A DNA stretch of 64,000 nt from an uncultured virus (IMG/VR IMGVR_UViG_3300045125_000130) (Duplodnaviria > Heunggongvirae > Uroviricota > Caudoviricetes): IMG/VR virus record IMGVR_UViG_3300045125_000130, one strand, 5' to 3'. The notes under the pieces are model-generated. The model saw nothing but the letters and a program-made list of their open reading frames with translations, was not told where the DNA came from and did no database searches. This document shows, piece by piece, positions 4,799-63,224 of the stretch (the first letter of the stretch is position 1; every line of letters begins with the position of its first letter). The position numbers were made by a program, and so were the translations under genes.

Positions 4799-7700
4799 TT
4801 ATTCATTAGATTCGCCTGTAATTGGACCGGTGCCGTCTGGAGCAATAGGATTAATATCGGTTGTTATATTTGCATATCTTCCAACTGGATATACAGGAGC
4901 GGTCATGAAACCATCTGAGTCGATGCCAGGAACAATATCGTGTATTGGTAAGAATAGAAAGTTGTATTTTACATGCCATTGGCGCTCTTGAAGAATTTCT
5001 TTGAGAGCGATGATATTCAGTTTCCCATGTTGATTCTTTCCAATCAAAATCTAATCTAGTTATAAATCCAGCAATACCTTTACCTTTATTATTTTCAAAA
5101 GATTGCATTATTGGATTGGCACCCGCACCTTCTGAAGAAAAGAAGTCTCGTATTTGTGTTTTTATATCTTCTATAGATGTTGTTGGTGTATTTGGCTGAT
5201 ATCCTGTAATGCTTTTTTAACACATTCATAATCGATAGACATTTTTAATGACAAAGAACTATAAGCAACGGAACGTTGCCATAAGTCTTCAGTTGGAGTA
5301 TTTTGAAATGCCGAAAATTATCTGTGGAAATGATTCAGCTAAATCTAATGTCAATCCACTTTCTAAAATATTTAAATTTGCATATCTTAATACATAATTT
5401 CCGTGCCCTCCCCGCCGCTCGGATTAACCAACTTCGATCAAATTATATTGTTTTAAAATCCCTAATTGGGTCGAGGTTGTTACTACTTTAAAAGCATATA
5501 GTCCAGGTGATAAATTTGGTTTTCCTAATTCACGAGGCGCCGCAAGTATCGGTCCTCGTCCAAATACCTGATTATCTATGCCTTCATGATAAGAAAATTA
5601 ATATATGATCGCCAATCTCAAAATTGGCAGATAACATCCTTGTTAATTTTGTTTCATAAAAATCGACTTGGCTTATACTTGTTTCATTTAACTGATTAAA
5701 AGTATTTTCATCTAGATTAAATTCATCTTTGCCAAGTCCAAACAATCTCATGACGTTAAATTTACTATAGTTGCTTTTCCAAACGTCTCCAACTCTCATA
5801 CGAATTAAAGGAGAGGATCCTATTAACTGAGAATATGGTTGAATAAATTTTTGTTTTACTGATGGAGTACCACTAGTTTGTACTGATAGTGGACGACCTT
5901 TAGTATATTGTGGATATACAAATGTCAGAAGTTTATTGATTTTTAAGCCACATTGCGTCATGGTCAGATGGATTTGTTGCAATAACCCAAAAATCTATAG
6001 CCATTGTGCGGCTTGTACTTTTATATATATGAGTTGGTTCAACTCTTCCAAATCCGGTTTCGCTTTCATAATCTGCTTGAAATTGATCTTGCATATTTTC
6101 TATGAAAGCGTGAAATGATAATATTTCTCCAGTTCTCATATCTTGAAAAGAAAATGGCATATAACTGGATTCTAGTTGTTCTTCAAATTGCTAATTTGTT
6201 GTGGACTAATTTCATTTAGCGCATTTAAAGACAAATAATCGTTTAGTTTATTTAAACCTTCTTGTCCGTTAACGGCATATGCAGCTTTTTTATTGAATTA
6301 GGCAACAAATACAACGAAGGAGTTATATCAGTACCTACGCTAATGGTCCTGCTCAATCAGTACCTTGCACATTTGATTTCAATCTGGATTTTACAATCAA
6401 AGATTTTAAGTCGATCTCGAGTAAAAGTATTTGTATTCAAATTCATTAGAAACGGTACCATCGTTAAAATTATCGATAAAAGATGTCTGACTTACAGTTA
6501 AAGGATATCTTTTATTATTGGCAGAAGAAAGACCTTTTTTGCCGGTTTAATTAATACCGGATTGTCTACACGGTTTGTTGTTGGAATAACTTGATTTTCT
6601 CCAACTTCTGCTAACATGTTAACGAATCCAACTATTTTAGAGTTAAAAAACAATTCAATTATTTTTGCTGCTGCACCAACGATATTACCATCAATACCAT
6701 CGCTATATATATCAACACCGGTACGATTTAGAGACCCAGTATCGGCATTGAAGTTACCAGTAGCAGCTCCTACAAATACTCCTCGAGATATTTCTTGAAA
6801 TAAATTTTTAATAAAGCTACGAACAACGGTACCATACCAACCGGTTTCATTTAACATTCGATCACTAACAATTGCCGTTGCAACTGCTGTTACAAAACTG
6901 AGGGATCTGTAACGTCCCTGGGCGAACTTAAACCAAAGAAAGAAGATGAAATCCAGCTCTAACAGATCTGAATACGTATCCTTACCGGTTATTCTTTGCA
7001 ATGATTCTGCAACTGCTACAACTATAAGAGATATGCACCCACCATTATAGCTAACCCTGGCATCTGGGATAATCTTCAATACTATCAAATGGAACAATCC
7101 AGTTATTGTAGCTACCATATGAGTTAATTGGCTCTACGAAGCTAAATCTGGAAAGTTTGATGTTTTGTTAAGTTTTTTATCTTGTTTTAAAACGCCGTTG
7201 AAATCATTATCTAAAACTACATTAGGCGTCATTTCTTGAACAGGAACACGTAAGCCTATTCGTGCAGCACCAGGAACCAATGCTGCGGCACGTGCAGCCA
7301 ATATTTGTCCGGGTGTCTCATCTGTTTTGATTTGGTCCAAACTTAGGAACGTATAGTTCTCGGATCCCTTTAAGAGGCAGTCGAAGACCCATGTGTAAAA
7401 AATCTTGCTGTAACAACGTTGTTTCACCAGCAAAACCATCATTTCCTACACACGTTGTTCAATAGCGTGGTAAAGTTTTTTTGTAGGATCCTAGTGTAGA
7501 TTGTGCTTAACTCGATTTACATTAGATCCAACTTCTTGCTGTCCCGATGCTACATATAAATTTGTATTACCATCTGTTTCCGGATAGTTCGATTATTGCT
7601 TATAAGCGACTGTCCTATTTTTGAGGGTGATCGATCAATGAGTTTCATAGTCAATGTCATTTGGACCCGGGTTTGTTTTTCCCTTTATTACTCTTATTCC

Positions 7701-39388: not shown

Positions 39389-41525
39389 TCAATCTTCTAG
39401 GTTGCTTAAATCAATATCGTCCTTGTCAGAAGATTGTTCCAGAATTTTGCAAAGCCTCTACAAATATTTCATTTTCTGTCATTTTCATCTCAAATATAAG
39501 TTCTTCATCGGTATTCGAACGGGATTTTAAGTCATCAAAACTAACGTCATTTTCAGTCAATATTTTTTACGTCTTTGTCCAATGGAATTGAAATATTCAT
39601 CCAGTTTACTTTTAAGACGCAATATTTCATGACTTATAACTGGCGGAGCCTTATAAACCTGTTCTTCCGTGTCAAGTTTAAAATCAATGGTTTCAAGTAA
39701 TTTTTACTTTGACTTAAATTTATGGTTTCTTTATCATTAATATCGGTCATATAACGATTATTGGCAGAAACCATATCTTTTAGATTTGGCATGGCAATAT
39801 TGTTTTTACCACCTTGTCCGACACGGCGGCGCTCATTATGGCGAGCTGCTGAAATAAACGGAGTAGCTTTGATTGGTAAAGTGTTTGATGCTGCATCTGG
39901 AGAAGCTGAAGGCTGTCCAGCAACTTCGACGCCACTTGTTGCAACAGCTTGCATATCAGTAGAAATATTTGTTGGTTGTTGATTTGTGTTTGCATCACCA
40001 CCAGTGGTTCTCCAATAGGAGGATTTTTCTTAACACCGGCTCCAGGCATAGTGTAGTTGCTTGGATCAAATGGATCTGTTGTTGGATTTTTCTGTGGAAG
40101 ATTTTCTTTAACAGCTATAGCCTCAATTTCAACTTCACGTATACGATCTCTACGTATACCTGCTTCAATTTGATTATATCGTCTTCGGTAAGATCAAGTA
40201 TTTTCTTTTGTATCCAATCTTGATCAACAATCTTGGTTTCTTTTGCTTTTGGCGGCAATATCAAACTTAGTTGACATTGCTTCCATTTGTTGCATTGCTA
40301 CGGTGGACGGATTGCTTAACTTAAGTTCAAAAGCAATAAGATCCTCACCATCAAATCCTTTGGAGTAGAGATGAACCATTGCCAACTTATTAAGCTCACT
40401 TATAATAACTCTCTGAAGAACAGACACCGTTCTAGAGAAACGAATATCCTGTTGGGCAAGAGATGCTTTAGCAGACAAGTTTTCGTCAAAGTTCAAGTAA
40501 GGCTTTGGCACTTGAATAGCAGCAAACAACTTCTGCTGAAGATACTTTACGTCATCTACGGCGGTGGCGTTTTGTCCACCAGCTAGGGTTTCAATCTTTG
40601 TTCCAGTTTGACCGCCACGAACAGGAATGAAATAATCTTCGATCAATGCTTAATGGATTATAACGTTGATCCATTCTACCATTAGTTCTGTCTACAACGT
40701 CTCGAGAACGCATGGTTTGTTTAACAGCTTCCATATATGAAGGGACATCATTAGGCGCTACGTTACCAACGTCGATATAGAAAACACGACGTTCGGGTGA
40801 ACGAACAACACGATAAACTAACATGCTGTCTTCCATCATCATAAGCTGACGCCAAATTCTTCTTGCTGGTTCAAGTATTGAAGTACCATATGGCAAGAAT
40901 AAATCATTGCCAAGAACTCTCATATGAGTTACTTGCCAGTTCTCAAGGTACCTATTCCCTCTTGTAAGCCATTTATAACGAACAGCATATGGATCATGCT
41001 GATCAAATCCTTCCTCACGTTCTAGCTCGTTTGCAGGGATTGGCTGGACATTAACAATACCAATATCCGGAATAACTTCGTTATAAAGAAAGAAATCTCC
41101 ATATTTGACCATTCCGGATCCAAGGACGAAGATTAAAGTCTATATTAAGAATATAGAACAACTCTTCAAGAGCTTCTTTAACTTCTGGGTTCTTTGAATA
41201 TAAGTGAAAAGCTTTTCCTTTTTCGTCGCCGGCAGCAGTTTCATCTGCGAAAATATTTAGGGCAGCAGCAATCTCTGGCTGATATTCCATTTCAGCAATC
41301 TAGAGTAACGAGCCATACGGTCAAGAATACCATATGCTCCGAGAACAGAGAAGGGAGAACTTTCACGACCAAATGGGAATGGTCCACGATAACCTAGATT
41401 ACCACGGACAAGCTGATTGTCGTAATAGCTCTTATAGTCATATCCTTTGACACGACGTTGAATTGCGGGTCCAGACCGGAATACTTCGGTTAGTCTGGAG
41501 AAAATGGATCATTTCGATTGGCCAA
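39389..41525 (-). CDS. Portal protein (T4 gp20-like) with long C-terminal extension
   Basis: MEYQPEIAAALNIFADE, MVKYGDFFL, PYGTSILEPARRIWRQL.MMEDSMLVYRVVRSPERRVFYIDVGN, EDYFIPVRGG..GTKIETLAGG. Confidence 0.92.
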
Positions 41526-50929: not shown

Positions 50930-51200
50930 CTACCGAAGCGCGTAATTATCTCGGGCAGCGTTAATCCGGAAAGTATTACGTCCCATGCTCGTATCATATG
51001 GAGAAACCTCTAGCTTAACTCGGTCCCCTACCTGCAAATCAATCTTATTCTGTCGCATCTTGCCAGAAAGCTTTGCAGTTACCACCTGATCGGTGCCCTC
51101 AGCCCGAACACTGAAAAATATCCCGTAGAATGATCCAAAACCACACCAACCATTTCCATACGATCCGTCATTTATCTGCTTGCCTTTTCTATCTTTCTTT
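50930..51200 (-). CDS. infA: Translation initiation factor IF-1
   Basis: FSVRAEGTDQVVTAKLSGKMRQNKIDLQVGDRVKLEVSPYDTSMGRxTFR, the S1/IF-1 signature. N-terminus frameshifted. Confidence 0.88.
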
Positions 51201-51216
51201 TTGTTGTTAACCGAAA

Positions 51217-51292
51217 CGTTCCCGGCAGGATTTGAACCTGCGACCAACGAGGTAGAAGCTCGTTGGCTCTATCCGGACTGAGCTGCAGGAAC
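51217..51292 (-). tRNA. tRNA-Arg(UCU)
   Basis: GTTCCTG acceptor; anticodon arm ACGAG-CTTCTAC-CTCGT; T-arm GCAGG-TTCAAAT-CCTGC; no encoded CCA. Confidence 0.9.
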
Positions 51293-53098: not shown

Positions 53099-53756
53099 GG
53101 TATTTATTTTTCCCTGTTTTTATGGGGTTTTATGAGATTTTGAGGTATCAAGTAAGCGGAAAATCGGACCTCGAACCGACAACGGCAACTTTGGAAGGAG
53201 TTGAACTCTACCGATGAGCTATTTCCGCAGAGGAGTCTTGATTTATTGCGGGTGATGGGTTTGCACCACCACGATCTTTGCGTTATAGAGCGCAACAGAC
53301 GCGCTACTTCTCCAGCCCGCTATATAAAAGATAGAACGGGTCTATCTTTTGTTGCAAGCTCTCCCGTAGTCATCTTCATATCTTCTTATATCTTTTTCAT
53401 CACAGACACCCATTTGAACTTCAATAAGTACTAAATCTTTGGCTGCTATGGCGTCCTATGTTTATGTTTTTTTGGAATAAAAATATGCACCACCAGTACC
53501 TATGTGGCGTTCCATTTCATCAAGTTGAGTGAGACCAAAACCACTTATTACAACCCACAATGTTCATCTCGTTGAGGAATGTGATTGTAAAGATATTCTG
53601 CAACCTTTTTTTATGAAAAGCTTTTTTAACTTTATAATTTTTCACCCTCATGGATGGTTTTCAAGCCATCCCCAAGGTCTTTCTTCACGATTAGATACTT
53701 CAGATGTCTCTTCTTTTTTTACTGACTTTTGATTTTGCCATACAGCTAACTAAATA

Positions 53757-55249: not shown

Positions 55250-55624
55250 GCGGCTTGATTAACGTTAGTTTGTATGTCAGCATTTGCCTTTTGAACATCT
55301 CGAGTTCTTATAGACATTCTTGTGGCATCGCCTTTCATAGTGTTAATGCCTTTTTCTACATTGAAAAATTTTTTCTACATATCAGAACTTTTTGTTCAAT
55401 ATTTTCTAAAGCAGAATCAGCTTCGCTTTCTCTTTCAGAACGAGAACCGGTACCTGTTCTAGCTGTCGAAGACGTTGCAGTTGTTTGACGACCACCGGTA
55501 GTTGAACTAGTTGTAGTTGCTCCACGGATTTACTTGCAGTAGATACTGTTGATATGGCTTCAATCTCTTTCAAATAGTTTCTAACAACTATAGAAACATA
55601 TTCTTTTAATAATGATTTGTTCAT
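55250..55624 (-). CDS. Hypothetical protein
   Basis: MNKSLLKEYVSIVVRNYLKE..., Thr/Ser-rich; TAATTA 6 nt upstream. Confidence 0.5.
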
Positions 55625-55648
55625 AACCATTAATTAGCTGGGTTATGT

Positions 55649-56910
55649 TCAAAACTGTTCTGTTTCCGTACTATCTTTCAATGCTACCGTTGAAGCTCCA
55701 TTTTGAACCGTATTCTGAACATAATCAAAATATCCTGTTCCTACAAAGCTTTGATGCTTAACTGCACGGAAACCTTCATCCTGCATTGCACAATTCTTCT
55801 TTGCTGCAATTCAGAGAAACCTAACATACCATTCTTCTTATATGCTTTACTTAACTCAAACATAGAAGTATTAAGGGAATGAAAACCGGCAAGAGTTATA
55901 ATTGAAACGATATCCCATAGCAGCTAACTCTTCTCGGAATGTCTGCATCTGACCACGATCCAAATATTTTGACCAATTAAAACTTGGGTGAGCAGTTATA
56001 AGCAAGTAGCTTACCTGGATACACCTTATGAATACCTCTGCAAAGGCTCTAGCAACCTCTAAATCGGTTTGCTTGTCTCCATCCATAAAAGGTCCAGCAT
56101 AAGGCGCATAAGCCAATCCACGGGCTATACAGCTCTCTAATCCATTACGGATACGATAGAAGCCTTCTGCTGTTCTCTCTCCTGTAAGGAACCGCTTATC
56201 ATTTTCATCATGATCGCTGGTAATAAGATTTGCAGCCTCTGCATCTGTTCTGGCAATAACAAGCGTTGGAACGTCTAATACGTCCGCCGCTAATCTTGCT
56301 GCAATAAGCTTCGCAATAGCTTCTCCGGTTGGAACAAGAACCTACCACCTAAATGACCACACTTCTTTGCGCTGGATAGTTGATCCTCAAAATGAACACC
56401 GGCAGCGCCGGCCTCAATCATCATCTTCATTAACTCATAAGCATTTAGATTGCCACCAAAGCCGGCTTCTGCATCGGCTACTATTGGTTGCATCCAATCC
56501 TTGCTATTATCCCCATTTACGCTATCAATCTGTTCACAACGTAAGAGGGCGTTATTAATCTTTTTACAACAGCAGGAACGCTATCGATTGGATAGAGAGA
56601 TTGATCTGGATACATTTGACCAGCGAGATTGCATCTGCTGCTACTTGCCAGCCGCTCAAATAGATGGCTTCTAATCCAGCAGCTACTTCTTGAATAGCTT
56701 GATTACCAGTTAAGGCACCAAGAGCAGCTACGTATGGTTGATTATTTAATCGGCGCCAAAGTTTATTTGCTCCAAGTCTGGCAAGGGAATGTTCTACAAT
56801 AACCTTACCACGAAGTTTTAAAACATCTTCGGCTGTATATGGACGCTTGATCCCGGTCCAACGTGGGTTCTCTTCCAATCTTTTTCTAACGTTTCTTTGT
56901 TATAAGTCAT
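55649..56910 (-). CDS. aceA: Isocitrate lyase
   Basis: [82 protein letters not shown] (catalytic KKCGH), [29 protein letters not shown]. Confidence 0.95.
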
Positions 56911-56916
56911 GGTGGT

Positions 56917-56945
56917 ATTATGCTACAACGAGATATATTTGTAAA
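56917..56945 (-). promoter_or_regulatory. sigma70-like promoter of aceA, leaderless
   Basis: TTTACA-N17-CATAAT-N6-ATG. Confidence 0.65.
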
Positions 56946-56977
56946 AGAAAACCCCAATGCGATTAAACATTGGGGTT
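56943..56977 (-). terminator. Intrinsic terminator after tRNA-Asn
   Basis: ACCCCAATG/CATTGGGGT stem followed by TTTCTTTT on the minus strand. Confidence 0.75.
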
Positions 56978-56981
56978 AAAA

Positions 56982-57101
56982 CTCCGACCTTGGACCCGAA
57001 CCAGGGACCATTCGGTTATCCTTGAGGTTTTTGGGTTTGCACCAACAGAACACGTATTCAACCTCCACAGCCGAAGGCTCTACCAACTGAGCTAAATCGG
57101 A
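56982..57101 (-). tRNA. tRNA-Asn(GUU) with a 48-nt insertion (57019-57066) inside the anticodon
   Basis: TCCGATT acceptor, G73, D-arm GCTCAGTTGGTAGAGC, anticodon arm TTCGG-CTGT[48 nt]TAA-CCGAA, T-arm CCTGG-TTCGGGT-CCA. Confidence 0.8.
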
Positions 57102-57169
57102 ATATAAACCCAGCATAATACTCATTACATTAAAATGTTCAAACCCATTAGTATTATGCGGGGTTATAA

Positions 57170-57489
57170 AATGATAGATACAAGTTCCATAAACAATAAA
57201 AGTAGGCTTGCTTGCTTAACGCTTCTATCTGCGTTCTCTTTCCCGAGAAGGGGCTTTGTCACCATTACTATCTAGAAAGGTATCTAAATCTTCACGGCTA
57301 GTCAGGTCGCTTCTGACCATCCCTAATCATCATGTTAGAGCTTAATATTAATATAACCGGCTTGGCAGACTTTTACCTCTGACTTTCTGTATTACCATTA
57401 TCACCGATAATACATACTTACGGCACCTTTATCCCATTGCCTTATCGGACCTCAAAGACGATGAACGGTCCATCGGATAGGATATCAAA
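57170..57489 (-). ncRNA. Candidate large structured ncRNA (~320 nt), family unknown
   Basis: ORF-free gap between two tRNAs with at least 8 short helices and 3-4 loop-to-distal complementarities (see findings). Confidence 0.6.
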
Positions 57490-57505
57490 TATTCAGTTTT
57501 CAAGA
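57490..57505 (-). promoter_or_regulatory. boxA-like antitermination element
   Basis: TCTTGAAAACTGAATA just 3' of tRNA-Ala, resembling the (T)CTTTGAAAACTGAAT boxA of bacterial rRNA spacers. Confidence 0.55.
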
Positions 57506-57512
57506 TACCAAG

Positions 57513-57585
57513 TGGACGAGATCGGGGACGATCCGACAACCCCCGGCTTGCAAAGCCGGTGCTCTCCCGATTGAGCTACTCGCCC
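57513..57585 (-). tRNA. tRNA-Ala(UGC)
   Basis: GGGCGAG/CTCGTCC acceptor with G3:U70 and A73; anticodon arm CCGGC-TTTGCAA-GCCGG; atypical T-loop ATCGTCC. Confidence 0.9.
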
Positions 57586-57601
57586 ATCACTTCACTCTCT
57601 A

Positions 57602-57630
57602 AATATAGTAGAGGAAGTTAAGTTTGTAAA
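57602..57630 (-). promoter_or_regulatory. sigma70-like promoter for the tRNA-Ala/ncRNA unit
   Basis: TTTACA-N17-TATATT. Confidence 0.65.
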
Positions 57631-57726
57631 CTATTTTTCAGTTAACCCAAACAGCCATTGCGGTTGTAAGAAAAACTGCAACACCAACAATAATCAACAT
57701 CATTCTATCTTCTATATTATATCCTT

Positions 57727-58581
57727 TCATTCCTCACCATTATCGACAAGCTTCTTAACATTCTTTCCGCCAGGAAGCCGAACCTTCTTGTTAAGACGCC
57801 GAGTATTACGCTGCTGCGTGTAATTGAAATGACGGAAAGCACTTTCTACTTCTTGAAACATCTTTTCTGCCTCATACTGCGTAGTAACACTACCAATCCG
57901 GCTACGATAAGTTTCAAGCTTTCCAGTTAGAACACCAACAGCCATTGCAATATCCATGATAGCCTGTGTATGCTGGGCACGCTTTGCTGCAATGAAATCG
58001 TTAACACTATCGGTATCAAGAGTAGCTCCTTTAATCTCTGCAACCTTACGGCGCTTTAGATCAAGCCAAGCATTTTCATACTGCTTGAATAGATACCGCA
58101 AAAGCTTATCATGCTCGGCATTACTGCCCCACGACGTTTTAACACCATGACGAAGAAATGCCTTGATATCACGCTCAATATAGGCATCGCCATTAGGAAC
58201 AAAATCAAAAATGGGACCGTTAAAGTTATCCGGATCCAAACGGTTTCCTGCGGTAAATGAAAGCACCGAATATCGGATGGTGTATGCAATATCACCGGAA
58301 CCTACATACCGACACGTGATCGGATTGCATGGCTGTCCCTGCCACCGAATAGGATTAAATGTCACGGTCTTTCCAGGCTGATCATTGATAACGTTATCCA
58401 AGATACTGGTAGAACCCCATCGATATAGACCACGACGGGAACGATACTTGTTTAGATACTCAATCTGTTCCAGGGCGGTCTTTGAGGTAAACTTATCTTC
58501 GGAACAAATGAAATTAAGAAGATCGCTGGAATTGATACTATATACAGACTTTGAACGGGGCATTTTCTTTTCTTTCTTCAC
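57727..58581 (-). CDS. Hypothetical protein (284 aa)
   Basis: Intact ORF; no recognised motif. Confidence 0.75.
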   Translation of the reverse strand: MKKEKKMPRSKSVYSINSSDLLNFICSEDKFTSKTALEQIEYLNKYRSRRGLYRWGSTSILDNVINDQPGKTVTFNPIRWQGQPCNPITCRYVGSGDIAYTIRYSVLSFTAGNRLDPDNFNGPIFDFVPNGDAYIERDIKAFLRHGVKTSWGSNAEHDKLLRYLFKQYENAWLDLKRRKVAEIKGATLDTDSVNDFIAAKRAQHTQAIMDIAMAVGVLTGKLETYRSRIGSVTTQYEAEKMFQEVESAFRHFNYTQQRNTRRLNKKVRLPGGKNVKKLVDNGEE

Positions 58582-60338: not shown

Positions 60339-60429
60339 ATTTTATCTCCTAAAAAGCAAAAAACAGGCTACTTTTTAGGGTTAGCCCGCTTTCAGCTATT
60401 TGTTGGTTCCTTTTAAGTATATCCCACGA

Positions 60430-61753
60430 TCACGTATTTGACTTTAGTGTAGGGAAGAATACTACATCCCGTAGATTTGGGACACCGAAAGAAGAGAATC
60501 AAACGATCAATGCCAACGCCACAACCACTCTGCGGAGGCATACCGTGCTCCATACATTCAAGATAATCTTCCTCAATCATCATGGCTTCATCATCACCAT
60601 TTGCTCGCTCCTGCATCTGCTGCTCAAGTAGCTGCCGCTGTAGGACGGGATCGGTAAGCTCTGTGTAGCACTTGACCACTTCCCAGCCTTCTACAATAAA
60701 CTGCCATTGCTGAACCGTATTAGGGTCATTGGGATGCCTTGCAGCCATTGGAGACATATGAGCCGGATAATCAGTCACAAATACCGGATCAATAAGCTTT
60801 GGACGAACTGCGGTCTTAAATAGCTGATCTGCTTCCTTTGCACTCATATCATCTGGATTACGTCCAGTATGTTCCTTGAATAGTTCACGATATTCTACAA
60901 CGGGTGCCTGTGCCCATCGATCAAGCTTTGAACGTGGTTCATCACCAATATCATCAAATCTTGACCACGTAGCCTTCCAAAGATAATAAAGCATATTCCG
61001 GAAAAGCTTCATATTGTCGCAATAATCCCAATATGCTGCATACCATTCAAGAGAAGTAAACTCTTGCAAATGGGATGGATCGATACCTTCATTACGAAAC
61101 TGCTTGCCAATCTCAAACACACGATCAAAACCAGCAACAGTCATACGCTTAAGATAAGTCTCTGGCGCAATACGAAGATAGAAATCTGCATCAAGAGCAT
61201 TATGGTGAGTAATGAATGGACGAGCCTGGGCGCCACTTGCTTGCGGCGTTAGGATTGGAGTTTCTACCTCCATAAACTGCTGTTCTTCTAGATAACTCCG
61301 AATAATACTAATAATCTTACTTCTGTTTCTGAATAGCTTGCGGCTCTCCGGATCTGTGGCACATTCCAGCCAACGCTTGCGCCTTACAAGCTCTGGATCG
61401 GTCATACCATGCCACTTGTCAGGGAAACCTACGGAAGCCTTTTGGAGCCTCTGGAAGCCCTTATTGACCAATACAGTCTTTTCTCCGGTAGAGGTAGTCC
61501 ATACTTCGCCAGTAACGGCAACAATATCTCCAATATGGGGAATAGCAGACCACTCCTTAAAGTTTGCTTCATCCATCATCTTCTTATTAAAAGCAAACTG
61601 GATCTTTGCATCGCTATTATCGGAAATATGACCGAAGGCTACACCACCCATTTTACGATAAGACAATACTCTGCCAATAACGTGAACTGGCTCACCGTCG
61701 TTATATTGGCGAATATGTCGAGCAAAAACCTGATCTTCTGTATTAGAAAACAT
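60430..61753 (-). CDS. lysS: Lysyl-tRNA synthetase (class II)
   Basis: OB-fold GRVLSYRKMGGVAF, FMEVETPIL, GAQARPFITHHNALD, YLRIAPETYLKR, FEIGKQFRNEGID.SHLQEFT.LE.Y, GMPPQSGCGVGIDRL. After one indel it ends NLRDVVFFPTLKSNT*. Confidence 0.95.
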
Positions 61754-61768
61754 ATATCCTAAAACGTT

Positions 61769-61794
61769 AAAACCTGCTATAAGCATAGCAGGGT
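61769..61794 (-). terminator. Hairpin terminator overlapping the putative lysS -10 box
   Basis: CCTGCTAT-GCTT-ATAGCAGG followed by TTTT on the minus strand; TATGCT lies within the hairpin. Confidence 0.5.
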
Positions 61795-62855: not shown

Positions 62856-62858
62856 AAA

Positions 62859-63224
62859 TGGAGATATCGGGAGTCGAACCCGAGGTCCAGAAGAGATCCA
62901 AATGATTTGTTGTCACATAGCGTAGCCCTTTTATAAATTACCCATCATAAGCTTAACCAAAGAGCGGGTTGTATATGATATGGCTTCAAAGTTTAAACCT
63001 TGGCAGTAGAAGCTATCCCTACAAGGTCGAGTTTGTTTAATAACAATCTAATAGATCCTCAAACGGCGTATCTATTAAACCGCTTGCTGTCAAGCAGCAA
63101 GAGCGTAAGAGCTATAAGAACTATCGTTTGCACTTACTTTTGTTTACGGTTTTTGAGCGGTCATAAACGCCCGCTGCTATGCAAATCAATTATCACTTCC
63201 CCTGTCGAAACCAATATTATCCCC
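62859..63224 (-). ncRNA. ssrA: tmRNA, tag peptide ANDSSYSSYALAA*
   Basis: 5' GGGGATAATATTGGTTTCGACAGG, 3' GGACCTCGGGTTCGACTCCCGATATCTCCA with G3:U pair; resume codon GCA after AAGT; tag ORF at 63090-63131. Confidence 0.95.

Follow-up and report, generated by a model that had tools for sequence, protein, structure and literature searches.

The sequence analysed here, referred to as the window, is a 64,000-nt stretch of an uncultured Caudoviricetes virus (IMG/VR record IMGVR_UViG_3300045125_000130). On its minus strand, a tRNA-Ala(UGC) gene (57512..57585; called by ARAGORN and, at 59.4 bits, by Rfam) and a tRNA-Asn(GUU) gene (56982..57101) enclose a gap free of open reading frames (ORFs). A preliminary description, made from the letters of the window alone, had proposed that this gap encodes an RNA of about 320 nt that is almost all helices, multiply pseudoknotted and possibly of a new class. 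The gap is real, and the candidate RNA is co-oriented with both flanking tRNA genes. Comparison with related sequences shows that 57172..57484 (minus strand) is a non-coding, conserved, structured RNA. Its family length is 321-360 nt, and an A/U-rich spacer of 22 nt separates the RNA model from tRNA-Ala in the window.

Members, strand and coding potential of the RNA family

Five related IMG/VR contigs were reached via a neighbouring 284-amino-acid protein (p284), and exact-pattern scans with conserved blocks added two viral and five metagenome contigs. The 12 homologues recovered (seven viral, five metagenome; cited below by L numbers) form with the window a family of 13 sequences from about seven lineages; L022 and L008 are one contig and count as a single member. 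Scans of viral contigs with other blocks and with another neighbour protein returned the same contigs again and added two stretches only (L030 and L035), and nothing beyond chance matches in coding DNA (L036 and L037) came from two scans of 185,579 prokaryote genomes. L020, L030, L035, L036 and L037 were dropped as chance matches in coding-looking DNA, since nhmmer matched no more than the 23-nt seed in L036 and had no match in the other four. A covariance model of the family (R1) matched all 13 members end to end at 274-389 bits, with one copy per locus and one in each of four whole viral records searched. The window match (57166-57491; 328 bits, E 1e-77) was the only one in the window.

The homologues share a gene order of LysRS-like gene, p214, tRNA-Glu, p102, p284, (tRNA-Ala), RNA, tRNA-Asn and isocitrate lyase. 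tRNA-Asn lies directly downstream of the RNA in 12 of the 13 members, the contig of L024 ending before that point, and 12 of 13 have a tRNA gene less than 100 nt from the RNA on one side or both; the nearest in L024 is ~670 nt upstream. The distance from the RNA to tRNA-Asn varies (0, ~47, ~70 or ~470 nt, the last in L001 with foreign DNA between). The preliminary assignment to a phage is supported by a T4-like portal gene in the window and by relatives that are IMG/VR contigs. CheckV rated relatives' contigs of 89-103 kb as 24-25% complete, and the genomes should therefore measure roughly 370-410 kb. The closest cultured phages, as judged by the portal protein, are at most 42% identical. At least 0.60 of the sampled words were recovered in each of 14 DNA sequencing runs, which come from 10 freshwater or sediment studies. 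Queried with the region, a blastn search of 50,697 phage records returned matches to the tRNA-Ala part only and none to the RNA, and the RNA itself had no blastn match among E. coli genomes (E≤10) or plasmids (E≤0.01). The family is thus far confined to one lineage of uncultured freshwater huge phages and is narrowly distributed.

Because the isocitrate lyase and portal genes of the window jump frames, its assembly must be rich in indels, and a hidden ORF was worth checking for. All six frames of the region contain stops in each of the 13 members (2-15 per frame in the 12 homologues), so that the non-coding reading holds whatever the quality of the window assembly; no conserved open frame was found among them. 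Indels in the variable hairpins of the homologues are not multiples of three. The sequence pairs also identify the strand. We counted 70 G-U cells against 14 A-C cells, and the share of standard pairs among the cells was 94.8% for the minus and 88.7% for the plus strand. The excess of G-U over A-C cells designates the minus strand as the RNA, as had been suspected from G-U wobbles in the window.

Searches with Rfam 15 (cmscan) returned nothing at gathering score on the RNA in the window, and no family at E≤10 either there (interval 56900-57700) or at six homologue loci; three further loci gave none at E≤0.1. RNase P (bacterial A and B, archaeal, nuclear and type T), group I intron, GOLLD, ROOL and tmRNA models were all without a match on the RNA at those loci (GOLLD is RF01998 and ROOL RF03087). 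tRNAs, tmRNA and group I introns, the latter at ~67 bits in the tRNA-Asn genes of L004 and L008, were found in the same searches and served as positive controls. Weak, sub-threshold matches exist, for example to snoU43, with 17.9 bits against a cut-off of 45. A description of such an RNA was not found in the literature listings searched. On the basis of these comparisons, we conclude that the RNA belongs to no catalogued family and is a new, narrowly distributed RNA class. It is of a kind already known, that of ornate, pseudoknotted phage RNAs beside tRNA genes.

Several specific identities were considered and rejected. The RNA was inspected by eye for a long-range P4 helix of RNase P, flanked by the universally conserved CR-I and CR-V sequences, and for a P1 pairing of the two ends: GCCCC has no P4 partner, GAAAR precedes a local covarying hairpin, and the ends are not conservatively paired. 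A likeness to the RNase P specificity domain (CCGAUGG-hairpin-CCGAUAAGG...GCCGUAAGUA) is not conserved, the first element reading UUGAUGA in L024 and UUAAUGA in L004. A group I intron is contradicted by the lack of an RF00028 match on the RNA and by its position between complete genes, where it interrupts nothing. The tmRNA of the phage (RF00023) lies elsewhere, at 62856-63224, and none is present at 57170-57489. Homology to T4 rnaC or rnaD was not detected: R1, run with filters off on NC_000866 (68500-74500), scored 5.9 bits at best (E ~1), and blastn found nothing. The junction strands do not fit the core of a hammerhead-like three-way junction, and a T-box with an Asn specifier fails since AAC is not conserved.

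The fold and its comparative support

Taken by itself, the window sequence does not fold better than chance. Its minimum free energy on the minus strand is -78.4, compared with -75.4±4.9 for shuffled controls (z = -0.61), and 29 of 100 shuffles fold as well or better; the plus strand gave z = -0.92. The evidence for structure therefore rests on comparison with the 12 homologues. RNAalifold on a plain MAFFT alignment of eight sequences predicted 66 pairs, 18 of them with compensatory changes, and a blind all-against-all scan of alignment columns found a long-range pairing (PK1, below) in which all six pairs covary. We then counted 71 pairs in 13 helices in an alignment of all 13 members fitted to R1 (A4). 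Standard pairs filled 94.8% of the pair cells (shuffles: 85.5±0.6) and 30 of the 71 pairs change on both sides (shuffles: 13.7±2.4), values that none of 500 shuffles reached. When partners were slid by one to three columns, only 32-46% of cells were paired and 5-10 pairs changed on both sides.

The 5' part of the RNA forms stem-loop I (57431..57483), in which an outer stem, UAUCCUAU/AUGGGAUA, joins 57475-57483 to 57431-57441 and an inner stem, GGACC/GGUCC, joins 57467-57471 to 57447-57451. Three of the nine outer pairs are changed on both sides (90.6% of cells paired, with L004 and L026 misaligned by three columns in this stem), as are two of the five inner pairs (100%). The 15-nt loop (57452-57466) opens with a near-invariant GUUCAUC.

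The strongest long-range pairing starts in the linker that follows. There, AAAGGUG (57424..57430) pairs with UACCUUU (57276..57282), which lies ~150 nt downstream in the loop of a hairpin within stem P5. This pseudoknot, PK1, corresponds to the UACCUU/AAGGUG pairing of the preliminary description and is well borne out: six of its seven pairs are changed on both sides and 97.8% of cells are paired. AAAGGA/UCCUUU is replaced by UCAAUC/GGUUGA in L003 and L023 and by AACGAG/CUCGUU in L024.

A three-way-junction domain (57357..57423) comes next. We propose that it is closed by CCG (57421-57423) and CGG (57357-57359), which are invariant in all 13 members and for that reason cannot be tested by covariation. 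The domain encloses hairpins II and III, and its junction strands read UAAGUA, which is invariant, and GAAAR. Hairpin II (57388-57414), UGUAUUAUC/GGUAAUACA, is variable in length; RNAfold draws it in most members from differing sequences, the minimum-energy folds of L008, L026 and L024 departing from it. Hairpin III (57366-57381), CAGA/UCUG, is a stem-loop in 12 of 13 RNAfold folds, and by eye L024 has UAAC/GUUA instead; this hairpin is misaligned in A4 (46% paired). An A/U-rich linker connects the junction to hairpin IV.

Hairpin IV (57321..57340) has the stem CUCUAA/UUAGGG, with four of six pairs changed on both sides, and the loop CAUGAUGA (57327-57334). UGAUGA in this loop (57327-57332) is complementary to UCAUCG in loop I (57459-57464). 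In this second pseudoknot, PK2, all cells are paired, two pairs show one-sided changes, and all five changed sequences keep the pair. Loop IV reads AUGAUGA or GUGAUGA and hairpin V contains CUGA, a combination reminiscent of the C/D-box consensus (box C RUGAUGA and box D CUGA, joined in a K-turn by tandem sheared G-A pairs), with ACGGUGA as the box in L024; the sub-threshold snoU43 match is the only one in Rfam that bears on it. Both box changes in L024 preserve Watson-Crick or wobble pairing with loop I, which favours a loop-loop helix over a C/D box. Hairpin V (57300..57318), GGUCAG/CUGACU, carries a 7-nt loop, AAGCGAC (AUGCGAC in L003 and L023). Two of its six pairs are changed on both sides with 100% of cells paired, and UCAGA.GCGACCUGA is invariant. 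Stem P5 (GCC/GGU) and its inner hairpin P5a (AUUUAG/CUAGAU) occupy 57261..57298, the P5a loop bearing the 3' strand of PK1; two of three and five of six pairs, respectively, are changed on both sides.

The 3' core (57213..57260) has the layout GACAAAGCCCC-UUCUC-GGGAAA-GAGAA-CGCAGAUAGAAGCGUUAAGC, and ~45 nt of it are invariant or nearly so in all 13 members, while the neighbouring protein p284 drops to 40% identity. Within it, hairpin VII (57245-57249/57234-57238) has one compensated pair, reading UUUUC/GAAAA in L024. A long-range closing stem, P7 (GAUAGA/UCUAUC, 57224-57229/57173-57178), delimits a domain at 57173..57229, and P7a (GCAAG/CUUGU, 57211-57215/57180-57184) encloses a 26-nt loop. 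One pair is changed on both sides in each (A-U to U-A in three sequences for P7, A-U to G-C in six for P7a), with all cells paired in both stems. Two pairings made up of invariant bases only are conceivable: a compact H-type pseudoknot (CCC/GGG) around hairpin VII, and AACGC/GCGUU. A further pairing between the junction and the 3' loop, AAGU/ACUU, was rejected, as it consists of just four invariant pairs with uncompensated flanking positions.

Taken together, the comparisons support a multiply pseudoknotted fold of about eleven helices with at least one pseudoknot proven by covariation (PK1) and a fully conserved loop-loop pairing. Eight of the nine nested helices first described stand. Stem-loop I and the stems CUCUAA/UUAGGG, GUCAG/CUGAC, AUUUAGA/UCUAGAU and UUCUC/GAGAA are kept with compensatory changes, and hairpins II and III recur as stated above. 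The ninth, CGGUUA/UAGCCG, is not conserved: UAGCC pairs with GGU, with compensation, and CGG pairs most simply with the invariant CCG. Two of the four loop pairings, GGUAAAAG/CUUUUAUU and GGUGAUA/UAUCAUU, involve the loops of variable hairpins and occur in the window only, not in the homologues; three of the 13 pairings originally listed are thus not conserved. GUUCAU/AUGGAAC is weak, with three pairs, one of them compensated in one lineage, and 2 of 39 cells broken.

Expression, processing and possible function

Four freshwater metatranscriptome runs from three studies contain contigs on the region (401, 402, 330 and 319 nt). These extend from 57124, 57159 or 57172 to 57466, 57469 or 57511; identity to the window is at least 99% for three of them and 95-99% for the fourth. 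Two contigs, in the same orientation, run into sequence that we take to be Illumina adapter, one at 57172 and the other at 57466. These ends point to short inserts, one ending 1 nt past the closing stem (57172) and the other inside stem-loop I (57466). The contigs are a hint of a discrete, abundant RNA. The same four runs gave no contig on the flanking protein genes (56400-57103 and 57616-58300), although uncovered parts prove nothing and are not used as evidence. All four contigs lack one base at 57364, where the relatives are also one base shorter, so that the window probably carries an extra C.

The layout of the locus suggests how the RNA might be made. A sigma-70-like promoter (TTTACA-17-TATATT, 57602..57630, minus strand; 10 of 12 consensus positions matched) lies upstream of tRNA-Ala, and the motif is kept at -132 to -139 in 7 of 13 members. 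The R1 match of L003 and L023 stops at, or 1-4 nt inside, the start of tRNA-Asn; as the RNA abuts the tRNA there, RNase P cleavage would make the RNA 3' end. L024, which has no tRNA within ~670 nt upstream, has a TTGACA-type promoter-like site just before the first helix, and its RNA may be a primary transcript from its own promoter. In most members, transcription would start at the promoter before tRNA-Ala. The RNA would then be freed by maturation of the flanking tRNAs, through RNase P at the tRNA-Asn 5' end and 3'-end processing of tRNA-Ala, and trimmed to its closing stems. We lean towards this route of transcription, release by tRNA-maturing enzymes and trimming, for which the layout argues. 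Co-transcription with tRNA-Ala and release by tRNA processing, as in the preliminary description, is plausible from the same layout. The link to tRNA-Ala fits, but the downstream tRNA-Asn is the tighter partner, and L024 lacks the upstream tRNA.

As to function, we favour the reading that the RNA represents an uncatalogued family of stable, compactly folded non-coding RNA that comes from a tRNA operon and acts in trans via its invariant 3' core. We assign this a probability of about 0.72, with the functional part drawn from context and analogy. The mature RNA would act as a folded molecule, the invariant 3' core and the invariant loops forming its working surface. A trans-acting folded RNA is favoured because a covarying scaffold contrasts with ~45 nt of invariant sequence, because the locus lies in an island of translation genes, and because other phage RNAs adjoin tRNAs. 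More specifically, and only tentatively, the likeliest mode of action is that of a scaffold or decoy that would bind or sequester some conserved component, protein or RNA, of the translation or tRNA machinery; modes other than those considered here keep a sizeable share of the odds.

A number of points weigh against this reading. The folding energy of the single window sequence is no better than that of shuffles (z = -0.61). The alignment is shallow, comprising 13 sequences of about seven lineages with an effective sequence number of 1.85, and kinship among sequences can beat a shuffle control even without structure. A4 was fitted to the proposed structure, which biases the counts, although an independent MAFFT alignment recovered the same helices. 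Covariation has no reach over the invariant core, the CCG/CGG stem or pseudoknots within the core. Presence in RNA libraries is no proof of transcription since DNA may be carried over, and strand, level and true ends cannot be read from the contigs. The data revealed no processing site, and the spacer of 70 nt in the window, which has its own hairpin and promoter-like site, means that RNase P alone does not make the end at 57172; it implies additional trimming or an end of separate origin.

The nearest analogues, by context only, appear to be GOLLD/ROOL and T4 rnaC/rnaD. The GOLLD, ROOL and OLE RNAs have recently been shown to be RNA-only assemblies, and ROOL measures ~580 nt. A preprint by Kretsch et al. 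on such assemblies describes ROOL and GOLLD as RNAs of phages and prophages, 'often near tRNA islands', that contain several pseudoknots and have no known protein partner; many GOLLD members are 800 nt or more (bioRxiv 10.1101/2024.12.08.627333). The same preprint reports that linker-loop pairings first found by covariation (J6/8-L8 in ROOL, L20-J13/15 in GOLLD) proved to be intermolecular bridges (bioRxiv 10.1101/2024.12.08.627333). The present RNA resembles both in being encoded by a phage beside tRNA genes, in its many helices and pseudoknots, in a covarying linker-to-hairpin-loop pairing and in the lack of an adjacent partner protein of known family; like GOLLD, it combines an invariant 3' part with variable 5' hairpins. 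Unlike them, it shows no sequence or structure-profile match, is 321-360 nt long, and is represented by 13 sequences of one phage lineage.

T4 rnaC (species 1, 139 nt) and rnaD (species 2, 119 nt) are annotated in the T4 tRNA cluster, beside a tRNA gene on the same strand. They are made from tRNA precursor transcripts, and their function is unknown. The RNA described here likewise lies beside a same-strand tRNA gene in a phage with a T4-type portal; in contrast to rnaC and rnaD, with which it shares no homology, it is pseudoknotted and ~2.5 times longer. Bacterial RNase P RNA is similar in size and is also a pseudoknotted, stable RNA linked to tRNA genes. It differs in that the present RNA has no Rfam match and no P4 or conserved-region elements recognizable by eye, its pseudoknot joins a linker to a hairpin loop, and its 5' and 3' ends do not pair with each other.

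A further possibility is a new, compact and self-sufficient class of functional RNA, either a miniature RNA-only assembly bridged by the linker-loop pairing, as in ROOL and GOLLD, or a new ribozyme acting on the tRNA transcripts with which it is made. We regard this as doubtful; if it were true, the invariant core of 45 nt would amount to a functional RNA motif of a new kind. The first version, a homo-oligomer of the ROOL/GOLLD kind made of RNA only, in which copies would be joined via PK1 or via loop I and loop IV into a closed assembly and which may hold or present the adjoining tRNAs, is unlikely. The tRNA context, the pseudoknots, the strongly covarying linker-to-loop pairing and the distribution of invariant and variable parts are all traits of those RNAs, and covariation cannot separate pairing within one molecule from pairing between copies. 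Against this stand the lack of any Rfam GOLLD or ROOL match in the window or nine homologue loci and a length about half that of ROOL and well below the 800 nt or more of GOLLD. Moreover, no conserved self-complementary loop was found in the family, CAUG in loop IV being palindromic in only 9 of 13 members.

The second version, a new ribozyme that acts on the adjoining pre-tRNAs or on itself with the 3' core as active site, is improbable. A contiguous, near-invariant core of ~45 nt within a freely covarying scaffold would suit it, and such a conservation pattern is seen in catalytic RNAs. So would the position between two tRNA genes, in a phage region with a tmRNA, a LysRS-like enzyme and an IF-1-like protein, and an adjoining tRNA-Asn that bears a group I intron or a 48-nt insert without visible means of removal. 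Yet no Rfam 15 ribozyme family was matched, RNase P P4 elements could not be placed by eye, and neither a cleavage product nor a joint was seen in the RNA-library contigs. Intact, insert-bearing and intron-bearing tRNA-Asn genes alike accompany the RNA, which is therefore not tied to the insert.

We give equally little credence to a cis-acting 5' leader of pre-tRNA-Asn that would control processing, stability or read-through and would not be an independent RNA. It is true that 12 of 13 members have tRNA-Asn, whether intact or carrying an intron or insert, immediately after the RNA, and that RNA and tRNA are contiguous in L003 and L023. The complexity, pseudoknots and invariance of the RNA are, however, well beyond known tRNA leaders, and its distance to the tRNA is variable. 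The RNA-library contigs also contain the RNA without the tRNA, and one of them ends in adapter at 57172, still 71 nt short of the tRNA.

That the profiles missed a highly divergent member of a known family (RNase P, group I, tmRNA, GOLLD/ROOL or T4 rnaC/rnaD) is highly improbable. The size of the RNA would suit RNase P RNA and there are weak Rfam matches such as that to snoU43, but cmscan, which found tmRNA, tRNAs and group I introns, found none of these families on the RNA at the loci and thresholds given above; the CCGAUGG run is unconserved, R1 reaches at most 5.9 bits on T4 rnaC/rnaD, and blastn gave no match in phages, plasmids or E. coli. The idea of a protein-coding gene hidden by assembly errors, suggested by the split isocitrate lyase and portal genes and by the base missing at 57364 from all four RNA-library contigs, has a negligible probability given the stops in all 12 homologues from other assemblies, length changes that are not multiples of three, and changes that are compensatory in stems rather than at third codon positions.

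On the favoured reading of a trans-acting folded RNA as on its rivals, the family offers a clear target, with a covariation-proven pseudoknot and an unusually invariant core. At ~320 nt it is small enough for probing, cryo-electron microscopy and mutational scanning, and many freshwater DNA data sets, as well as RNA libraries, contain it. Large structured RNAs of unknown function are few and have repeatedly been a source of new biochemistry. The location is a translation-related island (tRNAs, tmRNA, LysRS-like and IF-1-like genes) of ~400-kb phages whose biology is almost unknown, and the function of the RNA could reveal how huge phages handle tRNA supply or host defence directed against it.

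Neighbouring genes and variation at the tRNA loci

The further genes described here all lie on the minus strand. A T4-type portal gene is split in two (40224-41112), and an isocitrate lyase gene (~55600-56878) is split over several frames. An IF-1-like protein is encoded at 50930-51247, and a LysRS-like class II synthetase at 60413-61786 scored 442 bits, just below the cut-off of 468 bits. The tmRNA (62856-63224; 118.5 bits) carries the tag ANDSSYSSYALAA. An extra tRNA at 53155-53228 (Rfam, 45.3 bits) was not reported by ARAGORN. The neighbour proteins p284, p102 and p214 matched no Pfam or PHROGs family, p284 and p214 matched none in NCBIfam, and p284 had no tblastn match in phage records; a partner protein can therefore not be proposed.

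The tRNA-Asn gene of the window was placed by alignment with intact relatives. A 48-nt insert (57019-57066) sits within its anticodon, which is why ARAGORN misses the gene. The interrupted gene scores 51.4 bits with the Rfam tRNA model in L021 and L001 and just 15.7 bits in the window, where the copy has a T-stem mismatch and a 1-nt gap that may be an assembly error. Among the relatives, the gene is polymorphic at one site inside the anticodon (CUGU|UAA). It is intact in L002, L025, L003, L023, L007 and L026, and holds a ~200-nt group I intron (RF00028) in L004 (6145-6341; 66.9 bits) and L008 (438-636; 67.4 bits). The 48-nt insert is identical in the window, L001, L005 and L021, is too short for a group I intron and lacks a terminal G. 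It is better conserved than the variable hairpins of the adjoining RNA and has no visible means of removal. An intrinsic-terminator-like hairpin of 11 pairs, five of them G-C, followed by TTCTTTT, lies after tRNA-Asn (56950..56977, minus strand).

The spacer of 70 nt between the RNA and tRNA-Asn in the window contains a hairpin (GCAUAAUACU...AGUAUUAUGC, 57110-57165, minus strand), followed by a conserved GCUGGGUUUAUAUU. At this position, the relatives form another hairpin, which is imperfect. A promoter-like TTGAAC-16-TATTAT (57142-57115) overlaps the spacer hairpin of the window, which may act as a terminator, a processing site or a promoter for tRNA-Asn. Between the RNA and tRNA-Asn of L001, ~470 nt of extra DNA (5337-5811) are bordered by a degenerate partial copy of the tRNA 5' end; this looks like the footprint of an insertion at a tRNA gene.

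A tRNA-Ala gene was called upstream of the RNA in 8 of 13 members. At the locus edge of L008, its 3' end alone is present, and in L004 and L026 an atypical tRNA-Ala was read by eye. The latter sequence (L004:4940-5045, identical in L026) is tRNA-like, with a UGC anticodon loop and a GGUCCA end, and is not called by ARAGORN. L007:598-680 holds a full tRNA-Ala followed by the 3' remnant of a second tRNA-Ala type, and two unlike versions of the gene occur among close relatives. The block around the promoter before tRNA-Ala (TAGTTTACAA...CTATATTTA, 57602-57640 in the window) is also found before tRNA-Glu in relatives (L003:3116-3152 and L004:3098-3137), which suggests a common type of phage promoter for the tRNA genes.

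ORFs are short across the whole window, and alternative readings of stop codons restore no long frames. The window looks like an indel-rich assembly of the long-read type, and its broken genes do not look like real pseudogenes.

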